Part shown: piece after piece, positions 1 to 43,290 of the stretch
How positions within the stretch are numbered: position 1 is the first letter of the stretch
Layout of the letters: each line of letters begins with the position of its first letter
Source of the DNA: Psammoneis japonica
Lineage: Eukaryota
Direction: 5' to 3'
Assembly (NCBI GenBank): GCA_008632985.1
Contig: QPGO01000004.1
Coordinates: forward strand, 372,001 to 436,000
Length of the DNA stretch: 64,000 nucleotides
The notes under the pieces: generated by a model
What the model was told of the DNA's origin: nothing
What the model saw: the letters and a program-made list of their open reading frames with translations, nothing else
Database searches by the model: none
Translations under genes and position numbers: made by a program

Positions 1-900
1 GCTGTTGCACAAATTTTCATTTGTTGCTGTGTGTGACACGTGAAAATGAGGCAATCACTGATGTCACTGGGTGAGACATGTCACCCATGAAAAAAGGCAG
101 TAAAATGCAGTGGTGCCACAGCAATGGTTTTTTGAGCTGCCCCACTTGAGATCAGCCAGCACATGTGTGGACAGTGTGCCTTCAGCCATCGGCATGGCTT
201 GAGTTGGTGAACAAGCTGCAACCTCCACCAGTCAAAGAGCAGCACTGCTGTCAAATGCCAGGAGCCACAGGTGCATGTGGCACACTCTCTTCTCTTTTTT
301 GCCATGTGCAATGCACTCTCATCCTTGCACAGCCACTCATGCTGCTTTTCTCTTTCCTTGTCTGCCCCCCCCCCCTTGGTTTTGCACAGACAGAGTCACA
401 TGTGATGCCCTTTGATGGATCAAGTTTTGTGGGTGTGTGATCTTTTCACACACACCTGCTGTTCTGCTGCACTCATTCACCAACAAAGAACACCTTTGTG
501 ATTCTGTGAAAGCCCCAGCATCAATGTTGTTTTGGAGACAAATGAAGTCTCATGCACCGCAAAGTGAGGAGGGGCATCACCACACCAGAGCTGTGGAGAG
601 AGAAAAAGAAAGCAAAGAAAAAAGGGCAGTGGGACTGCTCCACCAGGCTTGCCAACAGATGCAAGCTTGGAGCTGGCTCCTCTCTTGTTGGGCAGCAAGA
701 TGTTCTGATGCTGGCCTCTTTCTGCCTGTCTTTTGCTGGCTCTGCCTTTCTGCCTGCCTCTCACACATGGTGTGGCCTGCCTGCATCACCTCCAATGATG
801 GCACAGAGTCACAAGAAGGCTTGGATGTGGTCTCATGCTCCCTTCTGCTTGTGTTGATAGAGTTGTGATGCACTGTTCGAAGTGGTGCTGGCAGCCAGCA
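1..900. repeat. TpA/CpG-depleted degenerate repeat block (family not identifiable; runs off window start)
   Basis: Essentially no TA and few CG dinucleotides until ~850, with TG/CA excess. Composition matches the identifiable TE relics elsewhere in the window. Confidence 0.55.
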
Positions 901-1081
901 TGTTTATGTTTTGTGCAGATAAGGCATAACACGCCCCTGTTGATGGGGTGACTACATCATGACATGCGTCCCTTGCTTCAACTAAGCACGACGCCTCTGT
1001 GAATGAAGCCATGTCGCAGCAGCAGAAAAGCAAGCAGATTATACATGTTACAGCGCACAGTAGAGAAATCGAACCATTACC

Positions 1082-2293
1082 CTACGGATTCGGGTCAACC
1101 ATTGTTCTCTTCTTCTTACGGTTTTCCCAGAAAAGCTGTTTGCGCAAGGGGAGGGGGCCGGTCCGGTTACCACGACGAAGCAGCGTGGAAGTAGGTGGAC
1201 GATAGCGTGCCTTAGGGATGTCAAATTCTTCCTTGAGACGACGGAAAAAATCGCAGTCGATGCGAATGAGTTCTTGGGCAAATTCATATACCATAGTGTC
1301 AAGCGCATTCAACATGCTGTAGTTTTCCCTGTTGTAAGAGTTGGAGTAGTTGGCGGCAGCAACACGATGATGCTCAATTTCTGTCTTATGAAAGCCCATG
1401 AATCCAATTGTGTCCTCGAAGCAGACACTCGACTCGACATTGATAATGAAATCAAATCGCGAAAGCATACGTCTCGCCATGTTGACGTGACCAATGGTCG
1501 GCTGAAAGCCTTCCGGATAATCCGAGCTACCTGCGGTCAAACTCCACGTCATGTAGTTTGACTGAACAATCTGCAACCGTTCCGTCCTTCCCGCGTCGGT
1601 AAAGTTGCGTTTTCCGAAACAGGTCTGAGATAGCCACATGTTTACATTGCTAATTGCCCGTGCCACAGGTTCACGAATCGAAATCGAATGAGCAAACTCA
1701 GAACAAAACAAACTGTCATCATGATCAAGCCATCGCTCGTTTCCAATAAAGTCATACGGGGAATCTACTGCTTCTCGACAGGACAGGGACTGTCGTGTAA
1801 CGCAATAGTTACACCAGAACGGACATAAAGCTTTGTGCCGACAGAGCTTTGGGGGCGCCTTGAGTCCATTGTCCCTGACTAGCCGACAGAGACTGGTTCC
1901 ACCCGTCTTGGGGATGTGCAAGTTGTATTGTCTCATGTGAATCCGCGGTATAAATGCCTTAGCAAAGTACTGAAAGTGACGATCAAAGCAAGACGGATCG
2001 GCGAGCGTGACGTTGTGTCGCAACTCGTTCACTTCCCACGGCTCCATCGTTCCCTGCTTGAGCATCTTTCCAACATGATCACAGTCAACTGGTGGTAAGG
2101 GATATTCAACAGGCAAAAGAGGCGAACTTGCTTCAATAACTTGAGCCGGCGGGGAATCGTCAGTGTAGAGTGATTTCTGTCTCGCGGTCTTGACGCAGGG
2201 TTCGCCTCTCATCACATAGAAACTACCATTAATTAACGCCGATAACACCAATAAGACGCCAATTTGATACGTAAAGGGACTCGACATCGCCAT
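1082..2293 (-). CDS. Sulfotransferase-family (PAPS-dependent) type II membrane protein
   Basis: 403-aa intronless ORF. N-terminal hydrophobic anchor (IGVLLVLSALING), 5'-PSB-like HIPKTGGTS and 3'-PB-like IREPVARAIS. Normal Tyr and TA content. Confidence 0.75.
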   Translation of the reverse strand: MAMSSPFTYQIGVLLVLSALINGSFYVMRGEPCVKTARQKSLYTDDSPPAQVIEASSPLLPVEYPLPPVDCDHVGKMLKQGTMEPWEVNELRHNVTLADPSCFDRHFQYFAKAFIPRIHMRQYNLHIPKTGGTSLCRLVRDNGLKAPPKLCRHKALCPFWCNYCVTRQSLSCREAVDSPYDFIGNERWLDHDDSLFCSEFAHSISIREPVARAISNVNMWLSQTCFGKRNFTDAGRTERLQIVQSNYMTWSLTAGSSDYPEGFQPTIGHVNMARRMLSRFDFIINVESSVCFEDTIGFMGFHKTEIEHHRVAAANYSNSYNRENYSMLNALDTMVYEFAQELIRIDCDFFRRLKEEFDIPKARYRPPTSTLLRRGNRTGPLPLRKQLFWENRKKKRTMVDPNP

Positions 2294-2559
2294 TGGACTT
2301 CCTTATGCGACCTTATGGTTGCGTTTACCGGTGCTTCAGCAACGAAAACTAAACTGGATGCCTTTGTGTCTTGTGCTCACTTTTGTTTTGTGTCGTTGTT
2401 GTTGCGTTAGTTGCGTCGGCGAGCTCGCTAAATACTGTACAGTACCGTTCGTTTTGGCCGAACCCATTATCATACAAAACTTCTAAGTTACTTAGATACC
2501 ATTATATTTTTTTAAATTCATAGCATTAAAATTGTCCGAAATGAATAACAGTCAATCAT

Positions 2560-4867
2560 GCGCGCAGCGCTCAGGTGCAGTGCAGTGTCAGTGGTGCTGT
2601 GCGGCAGTGAGACATCAGACATCTGTTGCTGGAGGCACAGTGATGGACCAGGTCTTGCTGGCACTGCATCACCCACAAGTTGAGACTGTGCCACACCCTG
2701 TGCACAGTCTTCGGCCAATGACAAAACCAAAAAATGCACAAGAAAAAGTTTGCAATGTGTCTTTGGGGAGCTGTTGAAGCCAACAAAGTGCACTTGTTCA
2801 CGACGAAAATGCCCAAGGAGTGCAGTGTTGAAACATGAGTGAGAACAAGAGTTGCCCATGCTGGGAGGTTTCAGAGCAGGTTCTGTGCAATGCCACAGGA
2901 CAGCACAGGCTCACAACCTGGTGGAGGCTCAAGATGTTGCAGAGCAGCGGCCTCTGTTTCCAGAAACAGCACTGAGGCATGCATGTCATCATCAGCAGAC
3001 CAGTGCATGGTGGAGCACCATGGTGGAGTCACAATGACTGCAGTGTCCAAAAACTCATGGTGGCACAAACTTGGTGCCCAACTGGTGCTGGTTTGACTTG
3101 GCAGTTGCCCAACCAGAAAGAGCAACACTGGCTTGCATTGCTGCACTGACTTTGCTGCTGCTGGCAGCTTTTCACAAATTTGTGCCAGAAAGACACAGTG
3201 AGTGGCAAATGGCACGCAGCTGCAAGAAGAATGTGCACTGGCAATTCCCTCCAACAAGAATGTGTGCTGGCAATTCCTTCCAACAAGCAATGTTGCACAT
3301 TGCACAACACAAAACAGCAAACACAGTGCTCAATGAATTGCTGCAACGTTGCTGTGCCATCTGTGTCATGTTGCCAGCCATCACCACCAGAGCTGGCAGC
3401 AACAGCAACAGAAGCGCACTGGCCAAAGCTGAAGCTGGATGCCCTCCTGTGCAGCAGCAGCAGCAGCAGCAGCAAGGGCATGCTGAAGTGGCAAAAGCGG
3501 GGCACTGGGTGAAGAAATGGGCATCAACACCCCCTGACATTGTCTCCAGCAATTTTGCCACAGAAGACCTGGTTGAGTTCAATCATGGCTGCATCTGCAA
3601 GCAGCCATCAGTGAAGCAGTTGTGTGGGTGTCTCCTCTGTCTTTGAGAACACAGAGAAATGCTGCTTTGCACAGGGATCAGCATCACAAAACAAACCAAG
3701 AATTTGATGTTGATGCTCAACATCCACTCTCCAAGAAGTGCTGGGTTGCCACATGGCAGCTGAGGTCAAAAACCAAGTTTTAGATTGCCTTGAACAACAT
3801 CTTCATTGCAAGCAACATGAAAGGGAGTGGGTCAGCAGGCATTTGTCCTTTGCTGTGCTTGTTTTGACAAACTGAAAATGACATGCTGAGACACTGTTGT
3901 TGCATCTTGTTTTTGCATCTTCAAGGAAATCTTGTTCATGCAAGCACTGCCCAGGTTTGCTCTTGCCCTGACTCCTGCATGGAAAAAGGCAAGATCAAAG
4001 GCAGATTGTTTTCAAGGACACTGCAGCACATGTCCCACAATTGGCAATGATGCTGCAAACCAAGAACTCAAGGATGACCTTGTTGTGAGTCCCTCCAGCT
4101 TCTTGTTGGAGCAGAGCTGTGCTTGCAGTCAAAGTCCCACTGACCTTGCTGCTGACACAAGCACCCATGGCAATGAATCTGATCCTCACCCCACTTCCCA
4201 TGGCACCCATGTGGCACCACAACAACTTGCCATGGTGGTCATGAGATGACCCATCTTCCTCGCTGTCCTCACCCAGCAATGAGGCTGACAGTGCAACTGC
4301 TGCCACAGTGCCAAGAGACTCAACAGCCAGCTTGTGGCTGCTGTGATGGTTGGCACTGTAGACGTGACCCTGCCATTGTCAGCAGCTTCAACCATTGCTT
4401 GTTGGTTGAGCCACAACTCCCACATGCCAGCACAGATGACAACACAAGATCCCATGACACCTCTGTCATCATCTGACCTCACCTTGGATCATTTTTTGGA
4501 GAATTGCCAAGGACAAGCTGCACTTGTGTTTGCACTGAAGCTGCAAAAAGGACGGGTTTCAAGAGCTCTTTTGCCTTTGGAAAGAGAGCAAGAGCTGGGA
4601 GACTTTTTGTGCCATCTCATTGATGGCTGGTCATTTGACAACAACTTGCATGGGCCACCCTCCAATTTTCAACCAGCCAGGCTGGATGCACTGCAACAAA
4701 AGTTAAAAACTGCAGGGGACATTTGCAAAAGGAGGTGCCATTCCATGCAAGGTGCCCACAGCACTGGCACATGATCATGCACAACTGGTGGAGAATCTGT
4801 TCCCAGCTTTGGCGGGTGCCTTTTCAATGGCAAACATTTTTTTCAGTTTAAAGGAAGTCGTGCATCT
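2560..4867. repeat. TpA-depleted degenerate TE-derived block; target of the Copia insertion, continuing at 8813
   Basis: TA nearly absent. Contains (CAG)7 at 3452-3472. TSD CATCT at 4863-4867 and 8813-8817 shows the flanks were contiguous. Confidence 0.5.
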
Positions 4868-5143
4868 TGACAGGATTTGAACAGGATTTAGGTGCGCGCG
4901 AAATGTCGCACGCCATTTAGTTTGCCGCGCACAGTTTTGTGTGCTTTAGTTCCGCGCGTTCGCGTGCGATGTAGTTTGCTTTCGAGCCACAAGGCTCACA
5001 AGAATGACAACAGTGGCCCGATCATACCAACTTACACGTCTTTCGGCGCCTGTGATGGTCTCTGAGCGGAGACTCATCTGCCATTTAGACAGCAGCAAGG
5101 AGTTGTTGTTTGAATTCTTGCCACCTGCCTTCAATTTCTGTCA
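4868..5143 (+). repeat. 5' LTR (276 bp)
   Basis: TG...CA ends with an imperfect 14-bp terminal inverted repeat. Colinear without indels with 8537-8812, 31636-31911 and 33285-33560. Confidence 0.95.
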
Positions 5144-8100
5144 GGATCAGATCCGTGAGCGTGGTGCCCCATCCAAACTCATTGGCGACCGTGCTCAAGT
5201 TGAGATCAGCAACAAGGTGCTCGGGATCCTGCGAGCCCTCTTCATCTCCAGCTGGCAAAGTGAGCCTCACCAGCAACACCAAAACTTTGCCGAGCGTCAA
5301 TGCCAGACTGTGAAGCGCGTGGCGAACACTGTCATGGATCGTTTCGGTTCGCCTGCCCACACATGGCTGCTGGCACTCATGTGCGTGTGCTTCACACTCA
5401 ACCATGCAGCGTCCCCACGTCTCCACTGGTGCACGCCCCTCGAGACTCTCACTGGCTCCACCCCGGACATCAGCCCATTGCTTCGCTTTCACTGGTGGGA
5501 ACCCGTGTGCTTCCACCTGTGTGACTCCGATTGGCCGTCCGAATCCCATGAGTTGCGTGGACGCTTTGTTGGCATTGCTGAGCATGTCGGCCACCAGATG
5601 ACCTTCAAGATTCTCTCTGACGAGACTCAGAAGATCCTCCACCGGTCCAACGTACGATCCGCTGCCACCGACCCTGCCGTTCGAAACCTGCGTCTTGATC
5701 CTCCTGATGGAGAGCCACCTGAACCCATCATCAAATCTCGCCATGACGACAACCCCGTCGATTCTCCTGATGGGGAGATCAGGACACCCAAGATGCCAGT
5801 TTTCGATCCGCAAGACATCATCGGACGCACCTTCCTCATGCAGCCACAAGAGGACGGACAACGCCACAGAGCTCGCATCGTCAAGGCCGTCGAAGACCAC
5901 GAATGGAAAGTGAACGGCAATCCCGAGCTCACTAAGTTCGTCTGCTCTGTCAACAACGACGAATGCGAGGAAGTCCTTGCCTGCAACGACATCATGAATC
6001 ACATTGAGCAAGAAGACGAAGACACTGCTGTTTGGAAATTTCGACGCATCGTGTCACACGAAGGACCTCTGAAGCCTCATGACCCAACCTGGAAAGGCTC
6101 AAGCTACAACATTGTGCTTGAATGGGAAAGTGGGGAGATCACGTCCGAGCCTCTTGCCATCATCGCCAAGGACGACCCCGTCACCTGCACCATCCATGCA
6201 CGAGAGAACGGACTTCTCGACACTGATGGCTGGAAGCGGTTCCGCACCATCGCGAGGCACCAGAAGAAGCTGTTTCGCATGGCCAACCAAGCCAAGCTTC
6301 GCTCCTTCTGCACTGCACCTCGCTGCAAGTACGGGTGTGAAGTTCCCCGGAACTGCAAACACGCCATGTCACTAGACGAACGCAACGGCAACCGCAAATG
6401 GGGAGACGCAACTAATCTCGAGATGGACCAACTCGAGGAATACAAAGTCTTCCATGACTGCGGGCCCTTCGAGTCTTCCACTCCTCCTGCAAGACACAAG
6501 AAGATCCGAGTGCACCTGGTGTGCGACGTGAAACACGACGGTCGCCACAAGGCACGACTCGCAGCCAATGGGCACCTCACGGACGTACCCATCGACAGTG
6601 TCCACTCCGGAGCAGTCTCCCTCCGTGGCCTTCGGCTGATGATTTTCCTGGCCGAACTCAACGAGTTGGAGACATGGGCCACCGACATTGGCAATGCCCA
6701 CCTTGAAGCCACCACCAAGGAGAAGCTCTACATTGCAGCCGGACCCAAATTTGGCAAACTCGAAGGACACATCCTTGTCATCCACAAGGCCCTGCATGGA
6801 CTGCACAGCTCCGGCATCCGCTGGCACGAGCACTTCGCCAACTGCCTGCGAGCTGAAGGCTTCTTCCCCTGCCGCGCCGAACCCGACATTTGGATGCGCA
6901 GGAACGGCGACCACTGTGAATGCATTGCCGTTAATGTGGATGACCTCGCCATTGCTGTGAAGGACCCTCAATCTTTCGTTGATGCTCTCACGGAAAAGCA
7001 CAAGTTCAAGCTCAAGGGTGCCGGACCCATTGAGTTCCATCTGGGCTGCGACTTTTCCCAGGATCCCGACGGCACCTTGTGCCTGTCTCCGCGCAAGTAC
7101 ATTGAGCGCATGGTCGACAGCTGCACCCGACTGTTTGGGGAGAAACCTGCCACCAACGCCCTGCCACCTCTGGAGAAGGGTGACCACCCCGAACTGGACA
7201 CTTCCGAACTGCTGGGGCCCGATGGCATTCACAAGTTCCAGTCTCTTGTTGGTTCACTCCAATGGGCAGTGTCCCTTGGTCGAATTGATGACATGCGGAG
7301 GTGCGAGGGGTGAGCTGCCGACGGACACAGAAGACATGTAGTCGGGGCTGAGGCGGCAGGCAAGGAACTCGTCATGCGTGAACAACGAGGAGTCATTGGC
7401 AACGTCAAGACCTTCGTGTGCTTTGACAATGTGCAGACCAATTAGAGCTGCCAACATGTTCTTATAACCGCGGGGCAAAGGGATCACATTAGTGCCATTG
7501 TCGCACTCAAGCGAGTCGATTTGGGATGGTATGAACGTGAACAGTTCTTGATGCGAGTCCGTGCCGTCTTGGGTCAAAGCCAAACGAAGAGGGCTCCCAG
7601 CACCTTGGGCAAGCACGGTTCCAACAACGTGCTCGAAACCATCGGTTTGTTGCTGACGAGTGAGAACCATGGCAGACAAAAGTGGTGTCAGGACAAGCAA
7701 TTCTTGTTGGGAAGCGAAGGTAGACTTGAAACTTGGTTCACTCCAATGGGCAGTGTCCCTTGGTCGAATTGACATTGCCACGGCCGTCATGTCACTCTCT
7801 AGCTTCCGAGCTGTGCCCCGTCAAGGCCACTTGGATCGTGCCAAACGCGTCTGTGAGCACCTCTCCAAGATGCGACACGGCGCTCTCCGCATTCGCACGG
7901 AAGAGCCCGACTGTTCAGATCTCCCTGCTCCGGCCTGTGAGTGGATGCATTCCGTGTGCGGCGAAGCAGAAGAGATGATCCCCATGGATGCTCCACCGCC
8001 CCTTGGCAAGTTCGTCACAACCACCCACTGCGTCAATGCAAACTTGCACCATTGCATGCTCACCGGACGCTCTGTCATGGGAATGCTCCACTTCCTCAAC

Positions 8101-8536
8101 AAATTCCCGGCTGATTGGTTCTCTAAGAAGCAAGCCACCATGGAGACTGCGACCTGCAGGTCTGAATTTGTTGCTGCAAGGACTTGTGTCGAGCAGATTG
8201 TCGACCTGCGCATCACCCTGTGCCACCTTGGCGTCCCGATCCGCAATGTCAGTTGCATGTTCGGTGACAACAAGTTGGTTGTAGACAGTGCCACCATCCC
8301 GCACTCCAAGTTACACAAGCAACACACCGCGCTGTCATTCCACCGTGTGCGTGAGGCAATTGCCTCTGGTTGCCTTGAGCTCCACTTCATCGAAGGCTCC
8401 CGCAACCCTGCTGACATTCTCAGCAAGCATTGGGGTTGCTCCCAAATCTGTGACCTTCTCCGCCCCCTCATGTTCTGGAACTTCATTCCATCCGAAGTCG
8501 AATCTGTTTCTGTGGCTCCTCAAGCAAACTGGGGAG
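5144..8536 (+). pseudogene. Copia pol (C-terminal integrase, RT, RNase H), interrupted at 7289-7732
   Basis: ORFs 5004-7313 and 7660-8589. Conserved Tyr positions are replaced by Cys/His (KALHGL, GNAHLE, DHCECIAV, HCVNANLHH, KHWGCS). Confidence 0.9.
7289..7732 (-). pseudogene. Inverted 5'UTR plus gag N-terminal fragment inserted in pol
   Basis: Minus-strand MVLTRQQQTDGFEHVVGTVL...SPLRLAL...IDSLEC (ATG at 7670) resembles the N-terminus of diatom Copia gag. It is flanked by a perfect 40-bp direct repeat (7249-7288 / 7733-7772). Confidence 0.6.
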
Positions 8537-8812
8537 TGACAGGATTTGAACAGGATTTGGGTGCGTGCAAAACATCGCGCGCTATTTAGTTTGCCACGCA
8601 CAGTTTTGTGTGCTTCAGTTCCGCGCGTTCGCGCGTGACGCAGTTTGCTTTCGAGCCACAAGGCTCACAAGAACAATGACAGCAGCCCGATTGTGCCGAC
8701 TTGCACGTCTTTTGGCTCCTGCAACGGTCTCTGAGCGGAGACTCATCTGCTGTTTAGACAGCAGCAAGGAGCCATTGTTTGAATTCTTGCCATTTGCCTT
8801 CAATTTCTGTCA
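8537..8812 (+). repeat. 3' LTR (276 bp)
   Basis: Follows the PPT and is followed by TSD CATCT. Confidence 0.95.
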
Positions 8813-8817
8813 CATCT

Positions 8818-10720
8818 GAGTCTGGACATGGGTTGATGGGAGCCAACAGAGCAGCACATCAGAGGTGAGTCAAGTGTTTGTTTGTTGCTCCTGCTGTTTG
8901 TGACAGAGTGACTCAGCTTTCTCAACCAGGGTGCCAAAAGGAGTGCAGTTGGGGGCATGGAGAGCCATTGGGTGTGGAACCAGGTCAATCTCTTTGGTGA
9001 GAGACTGACCATGGAAATGCAAACTGGCAGCTTGCACAGTGCCATTGCAGCACCAACAATGCAGTTCAAAGTTGGAGTGCAAAAGTGCAAAGATGAAAAG
9101 TGCTCACCTGCAGAAGGCCCGCTGGGTGTCATCCACAAATCCCCAATGGTGCTGGGTTGGTGCCTTTCCAGGTCATCTGTTGGGGTGCCCACATTTGTTG
9201 TCCAAAATGCCAAGTGTCCTGAAGCTCTCAAGTGGAGGAGCACCATGATGGTCTCTGACTGGGCAAATGTCTTGCACCAGATCAACTTTCATCACACAGT
9301 TCTTGGAGAGAAACACCTGGCACAAGCTTGCATGAAATTTCCAGCCAAATTTTGTGATTTTGGTGGGCAGCCATGCCACTGATCTTGTGGCAGAATGCAT
9401 TGCACAAATGATGTGCCACAAACCACATGATGCACACAACTTCACAAGACCCCCCTGCCAAATGCATCCCTGGCCATGCTTGTGCAGCAGGTGTGGTCAC
9501 TTCAAAGATGAGAAAGAGATGTCACAAGCAGAGTTTCTTCATCACAAAAGATGCACCATTCTTCATGACAGATGATGGGTGTGAGCCACAGGCACCAAAG
9601 CAACAGTTTTCTCAGATTGCAATGGTTGCATTCTGTGTGGGGGTCCACTTCAAATGGTGAAAACTTGCAATTCTTCTTCTTCTTTCTTCAGCAAGTTGTT
9701 CTCTCTCTCTCCCTCTCTCTGTCTCTGTCTCTCTGCAACAAAAGAGCCACAATCTTCAAGGTTGAGCAAGCAAATCTCCCCACAGCACTGGCACCACACA
9801 AAGCAACACAGCTGAGGCTCTTTGTCACAAGTCTTTTTTACATGATGTGCTCCAACTCTGGGTGGGACCTTGCACTGCTCTGGAGTGTGATGACAAAGTG
9901 GACATTTTTTTGTGCGACACTCTGCACATGTGTGTCATGCACGCGTGCTTCTGACCACATGTGCTCTTTGCAAAGCTGCTTCACACAGCTTCATTTTTGC
10001 AAAGCAGACCATTTGTGAGAACAAAAGTGGGCTGGGTGCACTCTTCAGTGTCTGAAGAGTGCGCCACCTGGGCAAACCACAAACGACGCAGCACTTCAGG
10101 AATGGGCAGGCCTGCTCGAGATCAAAAATTTGCCTTTTTGTCTGCTGGTGATCATTTGTTTGTTCCCCACCTTGTGATTTTGCTGTGGAGCTTGCATGCA
10201 GTCACAGAATTCTGTGGGCCCAACATCACACTGAGTTCCACCCAGGGCCCACCAGGGCTGGGGTGCAGCTTTGGCTGCCGCTCCTCTCATTTCTTTTGAG
10301 CGCTGGCTGGCAAAGAGCACTGGAATGAAAAGGACAAATGCACACAAGTGACAAATCATTTGAAGGGCAATGCTGAAGTGCTTCCTCATGTTGGTGGTGT
10401 CTCCGACTGAGAGCACATCGCCACGGCACAGCCAGCTTGCTTGCCTGACTGATTTCTCGCACGACACGCCGCACACCGAGCATTGTTGACCAGCTCGCCA
10501 TCAGAGTCTGAGTCTCATCTCTGTTTGAGACATCACAATGAGCATGGCACCTTCGCAGACTGCATGGTCATTTTGGTTGGTTGCCATGTTGGTTGCTGTT
10601 CGTTGTTCGTCCCTGCATGCATTGGTGTTTTTCACAACAGAAAGATGGAACTTGGAATCTTCCTCCCTCCTGTCCTTTTCGAAAGTTCCCGCGGGCTGCG
10701 GCCTTCGTCGGGACACAACG
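8818..10720. repeat. TpA-depleted degenerate block; 8820-9660 may be an older Copia integrase relic
   Basis: TA and CG are both depleted. Weak integrase-like remnants (VVQNAKCPEALKW). A (CT)n tract lies at ~9700-9733. Confidence 0.4.
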
Positions 10721-10993
10721 AGCAACTGTGGTAAATGACAAATGACGAAGCTGTCGCGGCTACCGACTTGTTACCGGACCTTTACCCTTCTCATCCAAAA
10801 CAACGACGGGGCGTGTTGCGGTCGGTCGGTTGAAGATTATTATTTTTGCATTGATAGTTGACGTAACGAACAAGATCAAAAGTTGATTGTGTTGATGCGA
10901 ATAATTGTGGTAAAGATGTTGTTGCGCAGAGAAGATCGCAATAAGAGATAGTGATATGGAAAAACGACCCTAACCCACGGTTTATCTCATCCG

Positions 10994-25460: not shown

Positions 25461-25497
25461 AAAAATCCAAATGGCACGAATCCATCACATCATTTGA

Positions 25498-33560: not shown

Positions 33561-33699
33561 ATGGTGGAGAGCAGCAGGGACGATGACAGCAACGACGATG
33601 AGCAGGAGGAAGGCGCAAAAGGCAAAACGAACGACGGAGGAGACGAGTCAGATGGAGACGAGTCCGATGGAGACGAGTCCGATGATGATCATTGGCTCA

Positions 33700-35150
33700 G
33701 TTTGAGAGAGTTGCAGCAAGGAAATGTGCACACAGTTAACACAGCACTCGGTCACTGCACTGCAGACGTAACAAGGGATTGACACAACCGATGAAATGCT
33801 TTTCTTGTTTAAAACAATGTTTACGAAAATTAACAAATGCAATCACGCATTGGCACATGGCAACCAGGTGGAGGCAGAAATGGTGATGTGGACACAGTGA
33901 AAAATGGCACGCACAATTCTCAGCAAGTTGTTGCAATGTTGGCACACCAAACTTGCAACCAGAGGTTGGCCTGTCATTGCACGACAATAATTTTTTGCAA
34001 CATTTTAACAAATTGTCATCATGTAAATCCACACATTTTTGACATTTCGTGCACTCTGATGAACTTTGCAGAACAAGAGGCACTCTCTCTCTTTGAAGAG
34101 CAGCTTGGCCTTTCTACCAGGGTGTGCTCTTCTGTTGCTCATTTTCTCTTTGAATTTCTGGTGCATTCAGCACATTGAGGACTGGAGCACTTTTTCATTT
34201 GACACCTGTGGCCCACATTGCCAGTCCATTTTGCACAAGCAAAGTCTCTTGAATGGCTCTCTGATGTCAACAACACCTGGGATTTTTTTGCATGCTCACT
34301 GTTGCTTCACTTGAGTTGAGTCTGCCAATCAAAACTGTCAGTTCACACCAGGCAAAAAGTTGGTGCAAACCCTTCATCATCAATGACAGGGTGTGTCTGC
34401 ACTCAGCAACTGGACAGCCAAGTTTGAGCCACACATGTGGCCAAAACCAAGTCCACATCAGATGGTGTGTGCAGCAGCTGTGTCTGTGTTGCAAAGCAAG
34501 CACACAGTCCACAAGCCCAACCTGAGTAGAGTTTCATCATTGTGAGAACAGCTTGCAAATTTCTGCAAGACAGTGGCAGTGCAGCTCCAGCAGTCTCGTG
34601 CTGCATTCTGCACACCATGCACTCCCCACACAAAAGAGGCACTGCAAGAAGGGGCTTGCTTGACCAACCAACACAGTGGGCTGACCAGACCCCACAAAGA
34701 TGTTTCATTGGGAGAGCTGCACATTTCAAACACAGTCCTTTTCAACACATCACACACTGGCTCTGCACCCGCCCTGGGCCACTTTCATGCAACAAAGAGA
34801 GCAGTCATGACACACAAGTGCATGTGCCAGAAGTCACACAAGTCCATGTTTGCTCACTCAGACCCAGTGTTGTTTTTCATGTTGCACACCAAAATGACCT
34901 CACATTTGCACTCTTCTCACACACCACTTCGTTGCATCATTGCATCATTTTGGACGAGAGCATCACTTTCTTTCTTGTCCATGTCGTCTCACAACAAGTG
35001 TCCTCGAAGCTCTGGCAAATTGAGCAAATTCCACAGCACAGAGCAGACTAAAGAACAGTCAACCTCTTCTTAGTGTCACATTATGAAACAAGAACTGTGG
35101 CCAAAGCCAAGTGTCTCGAAGAGCACCCAAAGAACATGACCCCTTGACAG
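33700..35150. repeat. TpA-depleted degenerate block
   Basis: Called on composition only; family not identified. Confidence 0.45.
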
Positions 35151-35253
35151 ACCTTCACCTGCTGACACCACCTAACATACGGTCAGACCGTCAGAATTTC
35201 TACAGTAAATTCGCTCGGAAGATCCAGATCCAGATCCGGCGGCACATCAAGCG

Positions 35254-36316: not shown

Positions 36317-39300
36317 CTATAATCTGTCCTTTCTTCTTCCAGCTATCACCATAGCATTCGAGAAGCACATTGTACAGCATTGTGGAAAGTCGCACTCGAT
36401 TTCCCTTTCTTGTCCACCGCAATCCGCCCACAAATTTTCAAGTATCCCCGTCACATTATCACGCAAAGCACATATACTATCTGGCATGACGCCAGTTATG
36501 GAGTTTCCCTGTAACAAGAACTCGGTCAAGAACATTAATTGGCCACTAGCTATTGGTGGCACCGTCCCGTTGAGATTGTTGTTGAACACATAAAAGTCTC
36601 TCAACAGAGGAGGGTTAGAATAGCTTTCCGGGATCACACCCGTCAAACTGTTGTTGAAGAGGTAGACAAGCCGTATTGAATCAATGCCAAACAAAGATGC
36701 TGGGATTGACTCATTGTGATTGTTTGTAGATACGTCGATCGTGTCCAAACCCGACAAGTCTCCGAACACATCTGGTATTGGCCCTTCCAAGAAGTTGTTG
36801 TTCGTGAGCAAAAATTCTGAAAAGGAAAAAAAGAAAACGAGGCGAAATTCTACAGGTTAGCAAAGCAAAAAAGGCCGCCAAATGAATAGGAAAGATTTTA
36901 GAGACATTTTGCACCGACCTAAGTCTGTCAAAAGTCCTATTTCAGAGGCGAACGTTCCTCCCAGGAAATTGTTGTTCAAGCGGAGGTCCGATAGAAAGGC
37001 AAGGTTTCCAATCTCGGGTGGAATTGCTCCTGTGAGGAAGTTATTGTTCAAGTGAAGCTTTGTTAGAGATGTCATGTTGTAGATTTCATCCGGTATGCTA
37101 AGCCCTAGTTCATTGCCACTGAGACGAAGATCAGAAAGGCTTTCTAAATTGCCTAATTCTGACGGGATGGGCCCAGTGACTGTGTTGTTGAAGATGAGCA
37201 ATGTCTCTTTGAAAAAAAAACGAGAAGAGAGAGGACGAATGGCATAGAATCAATAAGCGGATGGCTCCAAAATATTTCACACATGATCCACCTTCAATCT
37301 TACCCAGTCCTGTGATTGATCCTAGTTCTGTCGGCAGAAATCCAACCAGTTCGTTATCTCCTATCCAAAGTTCTCGCAGTCTTGACAGCTGTGCAATTTC
37401 TGCTGGTATTACGCCCGCGAAACTGTTGTCAGAACACCTCAGAGATTGTAACCTGACTAGGCTCAAAATATCTTCTGTAAATAGTTCGCCGGACAACTGA
37501 TTGAATTCCAGGTCCAAAATACGGAGCCCGCCAATATTCGCAATTCCGCTAGGAATCGTCGACGTCAAATTATTGTCGTACATGTCCATTCGTCTGGTAT
37601 CAATCAAAACGCCAATTTCGTTTGGAAGAGAGCCATCTAAGTTGTTTTGGCCTAACAATCGAAACAGAAAAAGTGAGCAGAAAAAAAGAATATCAAGTCA
37701 AAAACCATTTCAGGGGATACTTACGAAGAAGAACTCTAATAACTAACAATAAGTCGTCGCAATCAATACCAAACCAATCACACTCAGATGCAGGAGACAG
37801 CCATCCTTCTGAATTTCGCCAGTTAGTCCCATCCGTAGCGTAGAAGAGCGTCGCAAGAGCATATCTTTGCTCAAGTGTAGGGTACGTACAAACATCGGTT
37901 TCAGTGTCAACATTTACAATCCAATTGAAGGCTTGTCCTTGGGGGGTTGTAGGGTCTAGAAGCTCGTCAGCCGGTGTGACTTGGGAGAGCAGATCCAAAA
38001 GAAACTCTTCACGTGTTGTGCCTGTGAGACAATCGGCTGTTGGCTGAAATGTCGTCTCACTGAAGGTAGGAAACGGCGTGAAGACTGGAAATGGAGTAGG
38101 TCTTGGCGTTCTTGGAGGTTGAGTTGGGTCTGTCGGTCGAAACGGGGTTGGTCGATTAGTTCCACCTCGTGGAGTTGGTCTTGGTGTTCCACCCCGAGGC
38201 GTCGGTCTTGGTGTCCCACCTCGAGGCGTTGGTCTTGGTGTTCCGCCCCGAGGCGTCGGTCTTGGTGTCCCGCCTGGAGGAGTCGGCCTCGGTGTCGCCC
38301 CTGGAGGGGTCGGCCTTTGTGTTTCACCCGGACGCGTTGGTCTTGGTGAACCACCAGGGAGGGTCGGCCGTGGTGTTTCACCCGGACGCGTAGGTCTTAG
38401 TGTTTCACCCGGACGCGTAGGTCTTGGTGTTTCACCCGGACGTGTAGGTCTTAATGTTTCACCCGGACGCGTAGGTCTTAGTGTTTCACCCGGACGCGTA
38501 GGCCTTGGAGTACCACCTGGTGGAGTTGGATTCGGTGTGTCCCCTGGCGAAGTTGGCCTTGGTGTTCCGCCTTCCGGCGTTGGCCTTGGTGTTCCACCTT
38601 CCGGGGTGGGTTGCGGTGTGCCACCTTCAGGCGTTGGAAATGGTGTAGGCCGTGAAGTTGGCAGTGGTGTCGTTGTTGGGGATGGTGTTGTAGTCGGTTC
38701 TTCACTTGGTTGTAGCGAAGTAGATGGAGTTGGTGTTCTAGTTGGCTCTTCACTTGGCTGGAAGGAACTTGATGGATAGGGCGTTCGAGAAGGAGCTTGT
38801 GATGGAAAACTGAGAAAGCGTCCGCCAAAATCTTCTGGAATTTCAACAAGTGGCGTGTCCTTCGGTGGATTATCTGGATCAAGGGGCGTCGTGGGATCAA
38901 GTGTTTTTTCTGGAATATTTGGGTCAAGCGGCTTCTCCGGAAATTCAGGAGCGAGAGTCTCCTCTGGTTTGTTTGGGAGCATTGGTTTATCTGAAGGTTT
39001 CGGCCTGAAAACATTGTCCCATGGAAAGTTAGGCCTAAAACTGTTGTCTTCGGGCTTGCTTTCATCGTCAACCGGCCAGTGCCATGACGCATCGTATGGT
39101 TCTATTAGCTTCGGCTTTCCACCGCGATATCCAGTCTTCTTGGCATCGTATGGCTCTATTAGCTTCGGCTTTCCACCGCGATATCCAGTCTTCTTTCCGT
39201 TCTGGCCTTTCTTGCCACTCAGTTTCTTTCCGTTCTGCGCATGTCCCTTCTTCCCATATGTGGGTTTTCGTCGATGAAAATGTGGTCGCCATAGATGACC

Positions 39301-39852
39301 CATACCATCTATCTTTTTTCTTTCGTTTTTGTCTTGTCCCCAAACTGCATTCGGATACTTTCCCTCGTTTTGCTTCTTTACGTTCTGTTGTGAAGCCCAC
39401 GTTGAGGGCTTCTCTCGAGTGTCTTTCCAGTTGAATTCATAATCCTTCTTATGGTGGCTGTTCTTGGTGTTGTTTTCGCGAATCTTCCCCTTTTTAATTA
39501 CTTTGGTAAAATAATGATTCCTTTTGTTGTTGCGTTTTTCAACTCGTCCAAACTTGAAAAGGAAATCACGCTGCCACGAGCTTTTTCTCAGATGTCGTTG
39601 GTCTAGCCCTTCAATGTTTGTGCTGGTGTCTGGATCAGCGTTTAGCTCGTCATATGACAAATCTTCGTATAATTGTAACTCGTAGGGTCCACCAACACTA
39701 TCTTTCATTGGTTCCATGCCTGATCTGAAGTATCGATCGTGAGTGCTTCTCTCTTCTTGTTGGTTTCGCCGGCTTTGGTCAGGGATGACGGTGGCTGACA
39801 TGAGTTCGAGCATCGTTGCCACCGCAATCCGTAACAGCAAGTGATATTTCAT
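36317..39852 (-). CDS. Secreted/surface LRR protein with Lys-rich and Pro/Thr-rich repeat N-terminus (4 exons)
   Basis: Start MKYHLLLRIAV at 39852. TPRPT repeats, QRYALATLFYATDG..W..WLS..ECDWFGIDC cap and plant-type LRRs. GT-AG introns at 37724-37652, 37303-~37208 and ~36917-36818. Confidence 0.85.
38150..38640. repeat. 27-bp coding minisatellite (PGETPRPTR / GGTPRPTP)
   Basis: Repeated GGTCTT(G/A)GTGTTTCACCCGGACGCGTA and related units within the LRR gene. Confidence 0.85.
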
Positions 39853-40169
39853 AGCGATGAGTATATTACTTTGATATATTGATAGGAACGCAAGTTGCCA
39901 TTGCCGAAGGTAGACCACGACTCGCAACTTGGTATGGTTATTTGCCGTCTTGTCGCACCTCGCACGATTTTGTGAGCAGCGCAGTTTGACTGCAATCCTC
40001 AACGCACAACGCACGCTTTTTCACTTTTTTGGTTTCTCTTTGCATGATACTCAGTTAAATTATATCATTAGAGCATGTATATTCAATGTCGAACATTTAT
40101 GATAGGATTGTCGTGTGGTGAGTCGTCGTTGAACGAGGTACGAGCTCCAATAAACCAATTCAAAATTCG

Positions 40170-43100
40170 TGGGCGGGATGGACTCAGGATCTGTCACTGA
40201 ACACTCTTTTGGCAAGTGGTTCAAAAGTTGTTCGCGTGCATGCATGCATGCATGTGTGGCCAATTTAACAGCTGACCCATTTCGGAGGCCGCGGGACTCC
40301 GCATCTAACCAGGATCTGACGACACAGCTCTCAAGAAGCAGTCTCCTGGGCGCTGCTTTTTTCACAACAAACACGCCCTTTGCACAGAGATCGCTGTTGA
40401 TTTGTGCACAATGACCATGTGCAAAGTGCAGCATTGGCATGGAGTTTGCTTGGAAATTGGCTTCATGTGACAGATTTTGAGATCACCTTGAGATTGTTGC
40501 TTTGTGTGTTGTGGAAAAGATGCCGAGCCCAGCAAAAGCTCTTTCGGGCTTGCATGTCTTCGCTGAGTGGGCCAGCACCCAGCACTCTCCGCACCCTGTT
40601 TTTCACATGAGTGTGCAAGCACATGGGTTGTTGACAGTTTTCAGATGCAGAAATGCACGCGGGAAATGCACCAGTGCCAGGTGTTTGTCACGGGAGCTTG
40701 CCACTGGCAGTTTGGGGGCGCAGCAAGGGAAATGACAACGTTGGTCAATTTGAGGCCAAAAAATGACATCACACCATTGTGTCTTCCTCTGCACACAGCT
40801 TCAGCAGAATCTGCATCATTGGATGCTTTCACTTCTGCTTTTCATGTGCTCAAAAGTGTCAAAAAAGTGTGCTCAAACTCAGCTGCATGAGATGCACATT
40901 TTTCTTGTTGCTCTCAAAAGGAAAGAAGAGCAACTTGCGCCAGCTCTTGCTGTGTGCCCAGCCATTTCTCTGCTTCTTTGTCAGTTGGGACATTGGCTGT
41001 GATGGAAACTGCATTGAAAAAAAAAGATGTTGGCTGTTTGCAAAAAAAGAATGAAGATGTGTTTTCATCCCAGGTGAGAAACGCGCATGCGGAGGTGAGA
41101 CGTTTCGTCTGTCCCTTTTCCATCGCCGTGCTTTTTGTGCGAGCAAATCTGACTGGACTTTCCCCCGATTTTTCGTTTCTTCTTTCCACAGACATGTTTA
41201 TTTTGAAAAGCCAGCCGTTGTTCTCATTGGTTGAAGGGTGCGCACAAGAAAAGCGCTGTCTCGAAAGCGGCATTTTTTGGAGTGAAACTGACAGCTGTCT
41301 GCTCGTTGTTGTCATTCTGGTGCATTTGAGAGACTGTTCTGCTGTTTCTTTCACTGAATCTGACTGCTTTGAAAGAATGCACGCATTGTTCATTGCACAA
41401 AGAGCTCATGCCAAAAAAGAACGGCGTTCTAACTCTGTCACTTGCATGAGAAAAATCGGGGGAACTGACTTCGCACGTGATTTTTTTGCGCGATCGGCCA
41501 TTTCAAAGATCGACTGATTTGTCGACCTGTGTGGGATGCTTGAGTGAACAAAACAATGGGATTGAAATGGCAGCGTCAAAGTTCAATGTGTGTCCAGTTG
41601 TCATGTGATTTGATGTGCCCAAGTGGAGTTAAAGATGAAATGTTGACAAAATTTCACCGCTCAAAATGACCAGTTCTATCTTAGAATAAAATGAAATGGC
41701 TGCAACACTGAGACATCGCCAATGGTGTTGTTCCACTTTACAACAATGAAACTGTCACACTTGCATCTGAGATTCTTTGTCCTCACACACCCTCAAAACC
41801 GAACACATGACGATTCTCTTGTCGGCGGCGAAATCTGATGTTGTCGCGCGACCCAAAAGCATCATCCATGACGACTCAAAGTGCGGACGACACATCATAA
41901 GAATCACAGCAACATGTCACAGAAACATTCTTCATTGTCATTATCCGGTGTCAAGCAGATGGAGCAGCGCGTTGATGAGAATCCCACTTCGCAAGCTGAG
42001 GAAGAGAGAAAGAGGCATCAAAAATGTCATGAGTCAAAAGGCCATCCACAAGGCACAACAAAAAACAAAGATCAAATTTTCAACCACATCATCGCATTGA
42101 GCGTTGTCTTGTTGACCTGTCTCGGCATTCTTGCCTTCTCAGTCACAACATCCGTTGGTGTGAGAATGGACGAGTTCATGGCGACGGCATGGCGCCATTT
42201 TCGGTTTGTGCGAATTGTGGTTTGTGGTTCGAGACATGGAAAAACACATGTTTTCACTGTCATGGAGCTCGTTTTTACTAAGATTTTTGGTGCCAAATGT
42301 ACGTCTCATGTAGAAACACGTAGAAAACCTCGTGATGTGTCCAAAAGTTTCTCACCTGGGATGAAAACACATCTGTGAAGTGTGAGAGAGACTGTTTGTT
42401 GTGCGCCTTTTTGTGTTTGCAAAACTTGTTGTGAACACAATGAAAAGCAGCAAAGCAGTGAAGGCAGCACAATTTCTCAGTCATTGTAAGATGTGAGCAA
42501 TGGTGGTGAAACCATTTCTTTTTGAGATTCGTTCACCAGCTTCACAAAATGTGCTCAAACTGCAGCTGCTTTCTTGTTGCTGTCAGCCACTTGAAAAACT
42601 TTTGGTGCTGGAAACATGCTCTGACACACACACAACAACAAACTGCATTTTTTCATTGCAGCATGCATCAGTGTTTTTGTTCTTGTTCTCACACTGCACT
42701 TGTTTTTTTTTTTGGTCAGAGAAGAGACATTTGAGACCCATTTTTTGCACAAAAGTGGTGCGCACTTCTGTGCTCGCATCGTGTGTCTGCATGGCCAATT
42801 CAACAGCTTCCCTGTTTTCTGAGGTTGAGCTGCCAAGAACTTGTCCAGGATTCTCTGCATCTTGAGCTTGCTTTGCAAAAAAGACATTTTTTTTTTCTTG
42901 CACGGCTTTTTCAAATGTGCTGCTGGCATTCAAGCCACAACTTGGTGTGTGGCACAGCATCAAACAACAATGTGTCGTGCTGGCATTGCCAGACATGCAA
43001 AATGAATGGGGCTGCAAATGACAAGCTTCAAAAACTTTGTGCCTTGGGAGTGCGGCCCAAGCTGTGCGAGCGGATGAAGAGCACAGCAGCACGCGTCAGC

Positions 43101-43290
43101 CATGACCCCAGCAGACACACACTGAGCACGAGAGCACTCAACACAATTGAGAGAAGAACAAGCAGTCAAACTTGTGTTGCTGATCCAAACGAGAGCGTGT
43201 GTTGAATGATCGTGTTCCACAGAACCTGCCAATGCTTGCTTAAAGACGTGCCATTTGTCTCTGTTGGTGGGTTGGGGTGTTTTTTTCGCT
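40170..43290. repeat. TpA-depleted degenerate TE block
   Basis: TA almost absent. Contains the TIR element 41055-42374. Confidence 0.55.
41055..42374. mobile_element. Non-autonomous TIR DNA element (1320 bp), superfamily unassigned
   Basis: Perfect 28-bp inverted repeats AGATGTGTTTTCATCCCAGGTGAGAAAC (41055-41082 / 42347-42374). No clear TSD. Confidence 0.7.

Follow-up and report, generated by a model that had tools for sequence, protein, structure and literature searches.

The mobile DNA in this stretch of a diatom chromosome has lost nearly all of its TpA dinucleotides, and the best overall explanation, which we consider likely, is a targeted TpA hypermutation of integrated mobile DNA in diatom chromosomes. 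The window (the whole stretch analysed, 64,000 nt) contains 1429 TA steps and 44 TA-free gaps of at least 250 bp, every one at or before position 43241; the longest spans 1235 bp (2546–3781). We delimited five TA-poor blocks, A to E (1–900, 2546–10732, 12986–14430, 17860–35050 and 40306–43241; 30,659 bp in sum), and compared them with the other 33,341 bp. The observed/expected ratio (O/E) of TA is 0.08 in the blocks versus 0.57 in the rest, with 158 TA observed versus 1169 expected from flanking density (Poisson P 8e-304). CG falls from 1.00 to 0.47, while CA (1.63 versus 1.13) and TG (1.68 versus 1.15) stand higher in the blocks. Neither AA (1.24 versus 1.17) nor AT (0.83 versus 0.92) is depleted, in keeping with the original prediction of a both-strand A:T to G:C process specific to TpA, in TA-starved blocks beside normal genes; parallel CpG depletion in most blocks had been overlooked. 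In the proposed process, the A:T pair of a TpA step would become G:C, giving TA to TG on one strand and TA to CA as read on the other, until TA is almost exhausted. A Pol-eta signature at WA (WA>WG), an earlier candidate, is ruled out because AA is not depleted.

The host is a diatom, in line with the diatom-like genome of the original prediction: the best named relatives of its ACC gene are all diatoms. No viral genes were seen in the window. TA is also under-represented in the host genes (O/E 0.57). Tyrosine, encoded by TAY, makes up 0–0.9% of residues in seven block ORFs versus 2.3–3.7% in seven host ORFs. Block edges are switch-like, sharp to ~50 bp and coincident with element ends, and no leakage of TA loss past ~50 bp was seen in the window; hypermutation would accordingly be confined, halting exactly at element edges. 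Matches to transposable element proteins are limited to blocks B and D (Copia, Ty3 and, via homologues, Plavaka), where the prediction of TE-derived blocks holds; it does not extend to blocks A, C and E, where a scan of 123 block ORFs recognised no TE domain.

Block A (1–900; TA O/E 0.036, CG 0.07) is unclassified DNA poor in TA and CG, with no Pfam domain. Block B consists of an older unclassified element that was the target of a Copia insertion. Its left part (2546–4867; TA 0.035, CG 0.118) and right part (8813–10732; TA 0.008, CG 0.243) flank the 3.9-kb Copia-type LTR element 1 on the plus strand (4868–8812; TA 0.161, CG 0.828), and its last ~330 bp (10400–10732) are without TA, yet have normal CpG. 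Copia element 1 has LTRs at 4868–5143 and 8537–8812, a perfect 5-bp target-site duplication (CATCT) and a plus-strand integrase/RT frame of 787 aa (4950–7313; RVT_2 E 2.2e-23, 565 homologues, Tyr 0.76%). Block C (12986–14430; TA 0.088, CG 0.291) is unclassified TA-poor DNA, present at single-copy depth in a public run. Block D includes a plus-strand Ty3/Gypsy-type LTR element (18171–23264; TA 0.052, CG 0.144) with LTRs at about 18171–18497 and 22943–23264 (75% identical), an RT at 20511–20942 (E 1.7e-10) and an RT_RNaseH domain at 21373–21834 (E 6.6e-6). Next to it is a large Plavaka-type (KDZ) DNA-transposon region with approximate limits of 23491–31600 (TA 0.067, CG 0.619), whose long ORFs are poor in Tyr; on the minus strand it carries a 484-aa Plavaka-family transposase frame (28486–29937; assigned via homologues, Tyr 0.21%). 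The minus-strand Copia-LTR element 2 follows (31636–33560; TA 0.192), with LTRs at 31636–31911 and 33285–33560 (94% identical), a perfect target-site duplication (ATGGT) and an interior made of a 42-bp tandem array. The block ends in an unclassified, TA-poor tail (33561–35050; TA 0.106, CG 0.316). Block E (40306–43241; TA 0.073, CG 0.596) is likewise unclassified and TA-poor.

The polarity of the change, TA to TG or CA, is given by outgroup alignments, a reading from compared sequences. Against 60 homologues, the Copia frame has 434 conserved columns; non-Tyr residues are kept in 350 of 412 (~85%), and at the 22 conserved Tyr columns 9 are now Cys and 4 His (13/22 together), with 4 remaining Tyr. 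All four conserved Tyr columns of the Plavaka frame, also aligned to 60 homologues, are changed (2 Cys, 2 His), and none of seven Ty3 tyrosines is kept in the Ty3 RT alignment (four Cys, one His, one Phe, one TGA). The Y of the YxDD box is replaced in both RTs. Tyr to Cys or His replacement in three TE classes had been predicted, and every Copia, Gypsy and Plavaka peptide quoted in its support was found where it had been placed. Mean Tyr across 120 Copia homologues is 4.18%, and all 80 related Copia loci examined from metagenomes have TA O/E of 0.47–1.00, so the proposed check on intact relatives returned normal TA. An intrinsic shortage of TA in the elements, or selection against it, for instance to escape a TA-cutting nuclease, could appeal to the host genes, which under-represent TA too (O/E 0.57). 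This idea is barely credible: the tyrosines lost include conserved and catalytic ones, among them those of both YxDD boxes, every one of the 80 relatives has TA O/E of at least 0.47, depletion is equal in non-coding LTRs and unclassified DNA, and LTR pairs diverge at TA-derived sites after insertion.

The TA-free bases themselves are confirmed by contigs built from the public run (31-mer, ~63x), a run from one study that may be the assembly's own sample and so tests base calls, not biology. Over 14 kb of unique sequence that is free of TA, these contigs show 0–6 differences, none at TA: they are identical across 1–1236, one covers 2138–4894 with 2 differences, and one covers 8786–18250 with 6. 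Differences between window and contigs include CpG-type ones. The 'repeat-targeted', RIP-like label of the original prediction would imply triggering by homology and is not supported here; at ≥90% identity, several of the TA-free blocks occur in the run as a single copy. A sequencing or assembly artefact, such as a TpA modification in silenced DNA miscalled by a long-read base-caller (G for A, C for T), would resemble the data in that the signature is motif- and domain-specific, like systematic miscalls at modified motifs. The agreement of the contigs makes this extremely improbable, as do sites where one copy has TG and another CA, and the same Tyr to Cys/His pattern in proteins of other public assemblies (P0096, P0297, P0333 and P0388, with P0333 a cluster of eight members on separate contigs).

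LTR pairs place the mutations in time. Those of Copia element 1 differ at 36 sites, of which 35 are transitions and 32 lie within YpR steps, including 8 TG/CA doubles, 6 TA/TG-or-CA and 10 CG/TG-or-CA; in Copia element 2, 16 of 17 differences fall within YpR steps. Together with the intact target-site duplications, this YpR-type divergence indicates that the change postdates insertion and therefore occurred in chromosomal DNA. TA, TG and CA are all found at one site in four-copy columns, and again at one unit position of the tandem array in Copia element 2. The variance of TG/CA skew is 1.14 across 61 windows: both strands are equally affected. TA sites mutate ~38–108x faster than non-YpR sites of the same LTRs and CpG ~8–40x faster, and TA O/E follows CG O/E over 10 segments (Spearman 0.79, P 0.006). 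Chromosomal DNA would thus be the substrate, acted on after insertion with the strands targeted independently, and decay of methylated CpG (CG to TG/CA) would proceed in parallel and more slowly in the same elements. Some TA loss could stem from an already mutated source copy; the Copia family has ~1000 copies, and among the variant places listed (40 of 231) most are CpG-type.

These observations bear directly on editing before integration, in which an ADAR-like A-to-I activity on element RNA or cDNA, or a deaminated replication intermediate, would deliver a copy born TA-poor. Block edges match element ends to ~50 bp, as such a route would produce, and the LTR differences leave some room for a complete double-stranded intermediate having been edited shortly before it integrated. 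ADARs also prefer a U on the 5' side of the A that they edit, according to the available parts of a recent preprint (bioRxiv 10.64898/2026.01.13.699255). We nevertheless regard pre-integration editing as very unlikely. The same TA loss affects a Plavaka-type DNA transposon, which moves by cut and paste; at TA-derived sites, the two LTRs of one insertion disagree even where its target-site duplication is intact; the strands are affected equally; TA loss deepens along with CpG decay; and the tandem array holds all three states at one unit position. In Bigelowiella natans, moreover, the corresponding mutations arose in integrated DNA, as described in that preprint's available text.

Hypermutation of integrated DNA also has a defined sequence context. 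On the assumption that TA contexts in the ancestral elements resembled those of genes or related Copias, the surviving TA fit an additive two-strand Poisson model (X2 7.2, df 6, P 0.31), which is better than a single rate (LRT 124.5, P 8e-27). The motif is 5'-T-A-N with the preference N = T>C>G>>A, an ordering unchanged with the 80 intact Copia loci as baseline. In 6 of 6 asymmetric contexts, product bias has the direction predicted for an influence of the base 3' to the A, and this sign test is the basis of the 3'-neighbour orientation. The process would therefore prefer 5'-T-A-T and 5'-T-A-C over T-A-G and mostly spare T-A-A. Since its products, TG and CA, do not serve as substrates again, it would be self-limiting, and TGA is the only new stop codon possible.

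Which base is attacked is a separate matter, as a strand-symmetric footprint is identical for A to G by adenine deamination and T to C by thymine modification. With the same process and targeting, a TET/JBP-type dioxygenase or other modifier could act on the T of 5'-N-T-A (N = A>G>C>>T), the context being equally readable with T as the mutated base and its 5' neighbour as the influential one; 5hmU, 5fU or a similar product would then mispair with G or undergo error-prone repair. Two points of background speak for thymine chemistry, namely the association of fungal Plavaka/KDZ transposons with TET/JBP genes and the location of 5hmU at TpA in dinoflagellates; 5hmU itself pairs with A, which speaks against it. 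A dioxygenase domain was found in 0 of 123 block ORFs and 0 of 20 larger ORFs, and a 730-aa ORF adjoining the transposase is without an Atlas match. The B. natans authors, by argument alone in the text available, prefer a deaminase (bioRxiv 10.64898/2026.01.13.699255). We judge the thymine route unlikely.

The candidate effector that we favour is an adenine deaminase of TadA/ADAT2 type that would act on DNA (A to inosine, read as G), perhaps recruited through the element's silencing state rather than its sequence. A-to-I editing by ADAR and TadA/ADAT-derived enzymes (tRNA A34, fungal sexual-stage mRNA, adenine base editors) likewise converts A to G and requires T/U 5'. The native tRNA context of TadA/ADAT is U33-A34, and it is this shared requirement that puts a TadA/ADAT2-like enzyme first among the candidates. 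Unlike these enzymes, whose natural substrate is RNA, the diatom process would target chromosomal DNA on both strands. The B. natans preprint, in the parts available, also argues for a TadA/ADAT2-like candidate (bioRxiv 10.64898/2026.01.13.699255).

Two well-known processes were rejected as the cause of TA loss, as the original prediction had anticipated. CpG deamination cannot remove TpA, and fungal RIP, being C to T, creates it. In ascomycetes, RIP acts mainly at CpA and so generates TpA as well as stop codons; it depends on sequence duplication and on a premeiotic stage, and it leaks into flanks (PMC2621366 and PMC7296669 in the portions available, with general background). Like RIP, the diatom process is a DNA-level transition hypermutation of mobile elements that spares neighbouring genes and leaves a dinucleotide footprint; unlike RIP, it destroys TpA, creates no stop codon but TGA and shows no leakage beyond ~50 bp. 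In Phaeodactylum tricornutum, TEs are methylated through DNMT5a, according to the accessible part of the source (PMC9998398). Methylated-CpG decay accounts for the CG to TG/CA half of the footprint and for the CpG-type LTR and public-run differences. Within the same LTRs, in contrast, TA disappears faster than CpG, and TA loss also occurs where CpG is normal (10400–10732; Copia CG O/E 0.83).

The original prediction knew of no description of such a process; one exists. In B. natans, integrated NCLDV and virophage DNA undergoes TpA to TpG/CpA hypermutation (Mettrop et al., bioRxiv 10.64898/2026.01.13.699255), and 230 of 231 viral-region mutations in mutation-accumulation lines were A to G or T to C, all of those on TpA. 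RT and DDE Pfam domains were enriched among TpA-depleted CDS in the same study, these points being taken from the available parts of the preprint (bioRxiv 10.64898/2026.01.13.699255). Judged by sequence footprint, the diatom process is of the same kind: as far as the preprint text available goes, both are TpA to TpG/CpA only, restricted to integrated foreign DNA beside normal host DNA and far over background in rate, and the blocks (TA 0.08; CA/TG ~1.65) lie within its cut-offs (≤0.43 and ≥1.52). De novo mutations were observed in B. natans, whereas here the footprint alone is read, all inference being drawn from one 64-kb window and comparisons, with no mutation watched arising. The hosts are a diatom (stramenopile) and a chlorarachniophyte (rhizarian), and the sequences hit here comprise LTR retrotransposons, a DNA transposon and unclassified DNA rather than NCLDV and virophage DNA. 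Within that same available text, the B. natans NCLDV region has rho 0.45 and the virophage region is TpA-rich, whereas depletion here is near saturation; CpG decay accompanies TA loss here, unlike in B. natans; and neither 'trinucleotide' nor 'flanking' appears as a word, whereas flank preference and element-exact edges are defined here. The first report of targeted TpA mutation of this kind dates from 2026 and concerns an unrelated alga; new here are the lineage, a diatom, the near-saturated depletion and the defined sequence context.

The window holds 1429 TA dinucleotides. TA-free gaps of at least 250 bp number 44, all lie at or before position 43241, and the three longest span 1235, 1084 and 893 bp. 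From these gaps we drew five blocks, A (1–900), B (2546–10732), C (12986–14430), D (17860–35050) and E (40306–43241), totaling 30,659 bp, and compared them with the other 33,341 bp of the window. The observed-to-expected ratio (O/E) of TA is 0.08 within the blocks and 0.57 outside, that of CG is 0.47 and 1.00, and CA and TG reach 1.63 and 1.68, as against 1.13 and 1.15. In absolute terms, the blocks contain 158 TA where the flanking density predicts 1169 (Poisson P = 8e-304). The depletion does not extend to AA (1.24 in the blocks, 1.17 outside) or AT (0.83 and 0.92), and neither CG nor GG is gained. Block edges are switch-like and sharp to ~50 bp: upstream of 2546, TA occurs every 5–20 bp, then not once for 1235 bp, and the other edges are alike. 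The original prediction of near-absent TA beside normal DNA thus holds at close range.

This signature bears directly on the processes that might produce it. CpG deamination accounts for the CG half only. Fungal RIP changes C:G to T:A mainly at CpA and raises TpA, unlike the window, which loses TpA and gains CpA and TpG. The earlier argument that neither can explain the blocks is therefore sound. A Pol-eta-like WA>WG process, offered in the same place as a candidate mechanism, does not survive: it requires A-to-G change at AA as well, and AA is undiminished.

The coding consequence is a loss of tyrosine. Seven long ORFs in the blocks have 0–0.9% Tyr, compared with 2.3–3.7% in seven host ORFs, as the original prediction had it, and the peptides it quoted are all found in place. 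Between 1 and 44000 there are 58 ORFs of at least 150 aa, with long ORFs in all six frames, because TGA is the only stop left in TA-free DNA. Gene callers would make long, Tyr-less, Cys/His-rich false proteins of such DNA, and these "proteins" enter databases. Separately, ~330 bp at 10400–10732, directly upstream of an HVSL/USB1-like gene (10955–11893), lack TA at normal CpG density.

The base calls are confirmed. We compared the window with contigs of X1, a public sequencing run with ~63x word depth; the stretch is found in runs of one study, and X1 may be the sample behind the assembly, so that the comparison tests base calls and not an independent organism. The contigs show no differences over 1–1236, two over 2138–4894, and six plus one gap over 8786–18250. 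The differences listed are mostly CpG↔TpG/CpA and none touches a TA, which on base calls favors the original prediction. Those in the unique TA-free blocks, at 3214, 9555, 9923, 9945, 13288 and 18113, are again mostly CpG↔TpG/CpA which suggests allelic decay of methylated CpG. In X1, several TA-free blocks appear single-copy at ≥90% identity. As similarity would be erased by heavy mutation itself, this speaks neither for nor against past duplication, the trigger of fungal RIP, which is also premeiotic and RID/DNMT-dependent.

To what extent are the blocks transposable elements (TEs)? Element 1 (4868–8812, +) carries an ORF (4950–7313) that matches RVT_2 (E = 2.2e-23). It is 3.9 kb long, with 276-nt LTRs that are 87% identical, end in TGACAGG...CTGTCA, and are flanked by a perfect 5-bp target-site duplication, CATCT. 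Element 2 (31636–33560, −) is an inverted pair of the same LTR, 94% identical, with the duplication ATGGT, around a 42-bp tandem array. The RVT_2 match, TG...CA LTRs and both 5-bp duplications identify Copia (Ty1). The array (~20 units, 32453–33290) fills the interior of element 2 and lies in an open frame (31981–33339, −); its units differ mainly at pyrimidine-purine (YpR) steps, one position being TG, CA or TA and another CA, TG or CG. Summed word depth of element 1 in X1 is ~65,000–114,000, compared with ~63–70 for unique DNA, or ~1000–1800 times single copy, which puts the Copia family on the order of a thousand copies. Differences between these copies are mostly transitions, and the 40 variant places listed, out of 231, are chiefly CpG losses private to the window copy. 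Element 1 lacks the N-terminal part of its 1000–1300 aa homologues (the match begins near query residue 62), and it is a very abundant, probably non-autonomous derivative.

Block D contains two further classes. A second LTR pair delimits a Ty3/Gypsy element (18171–23264) with an RT_RNaseH domain inside (E = 6.6e-6). In a PDB sequence search, the read-through translation of 20511–21374, with X at TGA stops, matched Ty3 reverse transcriptase (4ol8_A, E = 1.7e-10); neither fragments of this RT nor its read-through with X at TGA matched Pfam RVT_1. The Plavaka ORF (28486–29937, −) scores 21.7 bits against the PF18759 gathering cut-off of 26.3. A word-indexed search returned no homologue of it, and an exhaustive search was needed to find 530 (best E = 7e-74), of which five of eight tested lie above the Plavaka cut-off. 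A 730-aa ORF beside the transposase has no usable match in the Atlas. The original prediction called all five blocks TE-derived. For B and D, domain and homologue matches establish this identity; in a scan of 123 ORFs, no domain was found in blocks A, C or E or in the DNA that surrounds the Copia, and a TE origin there is unproven.

The host is a diatom, and not Bigelowiella, judging by its acetyl-CoA carboxylase gene (51332–54733), whose best named relatives are all diatoms (Helicotheca and Ditylum 70%, others 64–72%); the best unnamed match reaches 77%. With centric diatoms at 70% as the best named relatives, the protein collection holds no close named relative of this host. The multidomain gene (50414–56912, −) comes in three ORFs, which introns presumably separate. 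Elsewhere in host DNA, an 857-aa ORF (14955–17528, +) joins protein kinase, MIB/HERC2, PARP catalytic and RING domains in one frame, an unusual fusion. A 27-bp tandem repeat (~15 units, GC ~59%, 38078–38698) lies within a 775-aa ORF (37693–40020, −) that has no Pfam match.

Conserved tyrosines reveal the direction of change. In an alignment of the Copia frame with 60 homologues (434 columns with a 70% consensus), the frame keeps 350 of 412 non-Tyr columns and only 4 of 22 Tyr columns; nine have become Cys (TGY), four His (CAY) and five something else. Relative to the mean of 120 homologues, the frame has 0.76% Tyr (4.18%), 3.55% Cys (1.23%) and 5.08% His (3.40%). The Plavaka frame is similar, with 0.21% Tyr compared with 3.18%, and all four conserved Tyr columns changed, two to Cys and two to His. 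None of seven Ty3 tyrosines is kept in the Ty3-type RT (four Cys, one His, one Phe, one TGA), and the Y of the YxDD box is among those lost. The Tyr-to-Cys/His change predicted in three TE classes is thus borne out at 13 of 22, 4 of 4 and 5 of 7 tyrosines, respectively. TA-poor DNA could also be native to these elements, and TA-free intact relatives would have favored that explanation. Instead, all 80 related Copia loci from metagenomes have a TA O/E of 0.47–1.00, in a set biased toward unmutated copies by a Tyr in one of its two search patterns, and the tyrosines lost include catalytic ones. Changed Tyr columns together with normal relatives indicate that TA was ancestral in the elements and was later converted to TG or CA.

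The flanks of a TA strongly influence whether it survives. Relative to flank density, ATAT falls to 0, ATAC to 0.02, CTAA to 0.38 and TTAA to 0.64. We modeled the ten contexts with independent attack on each strand, one neighboring base determining the rate. This two-strand model fits (X2 = 7.2, df 6, P = 0.31) and improves on a single rate (LRT 124.5, P = 8e-27). With flanking DNA as the baseline, the rate constants are 2.19 for neighbor T, 1.34 for C, 0.85 for G and 0.22 for A; with the 80 intact Copia loci as the baseline they become 2.25, 1.46, 0.98 and 0.37, and the fit is acceptable (P = 0.059). In the window, this dependence and intact AA speak against equal A>G change in all contexts, which would have told against the original prediction. 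In 6/6 asymmetric contexts, the excess of CA over TG products has the sign expected from an effect of the base 3' of the mutated A, in a sign test on composition-corrected counts that contrasts products within each context; an initial trinucleotide gain/loss table was too confounded by composition and was dropped in favor of this contrast. The base 3' of a mutated A is equally the base 5' of a mutated T on the opposite strand. The motif would read 5'-T-A-N, with N = T>C>G>>A, on modest evidence for its orientation.

LTR pairs record changes made after insertion, as both copies start out identical when an element integrates. Those of element 1 differ at 36 sites, 35 of them transitions. Thirty-two fall where both copies have a pyrimidine-purine step, including 8 TG-versus-CA doubles, 6 TA versus TG/CA and 10 CG versus TG/CA, and just four among the other 132 positions. 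The LTRs of element 2 differ at 17 sites, 16 at pyrimidine-purine steps. Apart from the TpA change, the sole other frequent change in these pairs is CpG decay. In the four-copy LTR alignment, TA, TG and CA occur together at two sites and CG, TG and CA at one; eight sites have only mixed TG/CA, and 12 CpG sites survive in every copy, which implies that the fully converted sites are mostly fast TA sites. The older Gypsy LTR pair, in an alignment with some non-homologous flank, has 21 TG/CA doubles compared with 32 CA/CA and 24 TG/TG, counts that match what saturation predicts. In the 42-bp array, too, one unit position varies as TG, CA or TA between units. From the two Copia pairs, TA sites change at ~38–108x the non-YpR rate, a relative figure that rests on 1–4 background differences and is not per-generation; CpG sites, by rough estimates, change at ~8–40x.

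Both strands are hit alike, as the original prediction of a both-strand A:T>G:C process requires: the variance of the TG/CA skew is 1.14 over 61 windows of 500 bp, near binomial, with no strand-coordinated TG or CA patches found in the window. TA O/E falls with CG O/E across ten segments (Spearman 0.79, P = 0.006), which suggests continued action and not one event at integration. RNA or cDNA editing of the ADAR or APOBEC type is incompatible with these observations: the process reaches a DNA transposon, shows no strand bias, and has left the LTRs of single insertions different at TA-derived sites. From the sequence patterns, we infer that TA was lost in chromosomal DNA after insertion.

Integrated elements in the window have therefore undergone TpA-specific A:T→G:C change on both strands, within element-exact limits, with a flank preference and at a high relative rate. 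The process may keep acting on an element in the chromosome, to which the element's silenced state may recruit it. As effector, our speculative first choice is a DNA-acting adenine deaminase of the TadA/ADAT2 type. In tRNA, the A that such enzymes target always has U on its 5' side, and the context for bacterial TadA is U-A-C; these are our grounds for the preference. Thymine oxidation at N-T-A, likewise speculative, would leave the same footprint.

The original prediction knew of no description of such a process, and here it was overtaken. A 2026 preprint reports it in Bigelowiella natans (bioRxiv 10.64898/2026.01.13.699255). According to that preprint, 230 of 231 mutations in two integrated viral regions of mutation-accumulation lines were A→G or T→C, all 230 on TpA, at ~6e-7 per site per generation, ~1000x baseline; a single-copy insert is hit; and as enzyme an ADAT2-like adenine deaminase is proposed, with no experiment behind it. 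The B. natans process is also one that appears de novo in integrated DNA under clonal growth, and in a subset of lines. The preprint gives long-term footprint cut-offs of rho(TpA) ≤0.43 with rho(CpA+TpG) ≥1.52, and its Results and Discussion do not mention diatoms, trinucleotides or flanks. The window falls within these cut-offs over 30.7 kb, clustered in five blocks. It resembles B. natans also in TpA-only A→G/T→C change, seen in the TAY→TGY/CAY codons of Copia and Plavaka, and in confinement to integrated mobile DNA beside normal host DNA. The process in the window matches the TpA hypermutation of B. natans, and the phenomenon is no longer undescribed; the earlier observation is confirmed and its core inference was right. 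In the literature we searched, which leaves out most subscription journals, no other report of TpA hypermutation and none for diatoms was found. Within that literature, this is the first diatom case; it reaches saturation in three TE classes and contributes a motif and exact limits. The CpG half of the footprint is consistent with methylation of the TEs. In Phaeodactylum, DNA methylation disappears and young TEs are de-repressed when DNMT5a is lost (PMC9998398).

Related proteins carry similar marks. Among the 120 Copia homologues listed, one from a JGI assembly (P0096) is also Tyr-poor, with seven His, seven Cys and three Tyr at 27 conserved Tyr columns. Among 150 Plavaka representatives listed, three from public metagenome assemblies (P0297, P0333 and P0388) have one Tyr in 1127–1290 residues and Cys or His at Tyr-majority columns, and keep 70–76% of other conserved columns, near normal homologues. 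These four Tyr-poor proteins place the footprint in other public assemblies. Across nine Tyr-majority columns, His alone appears in P0333 (6) and Cys alone in P0388 (6). Such a pattern would imply that single copies were converted on one strand only, and the window shows no such case.

A saturated footprint in a diatom suggests that the process extends beyond a single species; within the literature searched, a targeted A:T→G:C DNA mutator had been recorded for one rhizarian alga alone, in a 2026 preprint. The motif, with T-A-T/C preferred and T-A-A spared, and the element-exact limits both have to be accounted for by whatever enzyme or targeting pathway is put forward. Model diatoms are transformable and editable, which could open the mechanism to testing should the process occur in them. 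A natural enzyme for A→G change in double-stranded chromosomal DNA would be of interest for base editing, and silenced transgenes in such algae may be mutated. Rather doubtfully, we entertain a broader reading, in which a natural 5'-T-A-Y DNA adenine deaminase would serve diatoms and chlorarachniophytes as an element-exact DNA-editing defence, widespread across SAR and the mirror image of RIP, with P0096, P0297, P0333 and P0388 among its footprints. If true, this defence would erase TpA from any silenced insert, and would shape TE decay, GC content and transgene fate in major marine algae.
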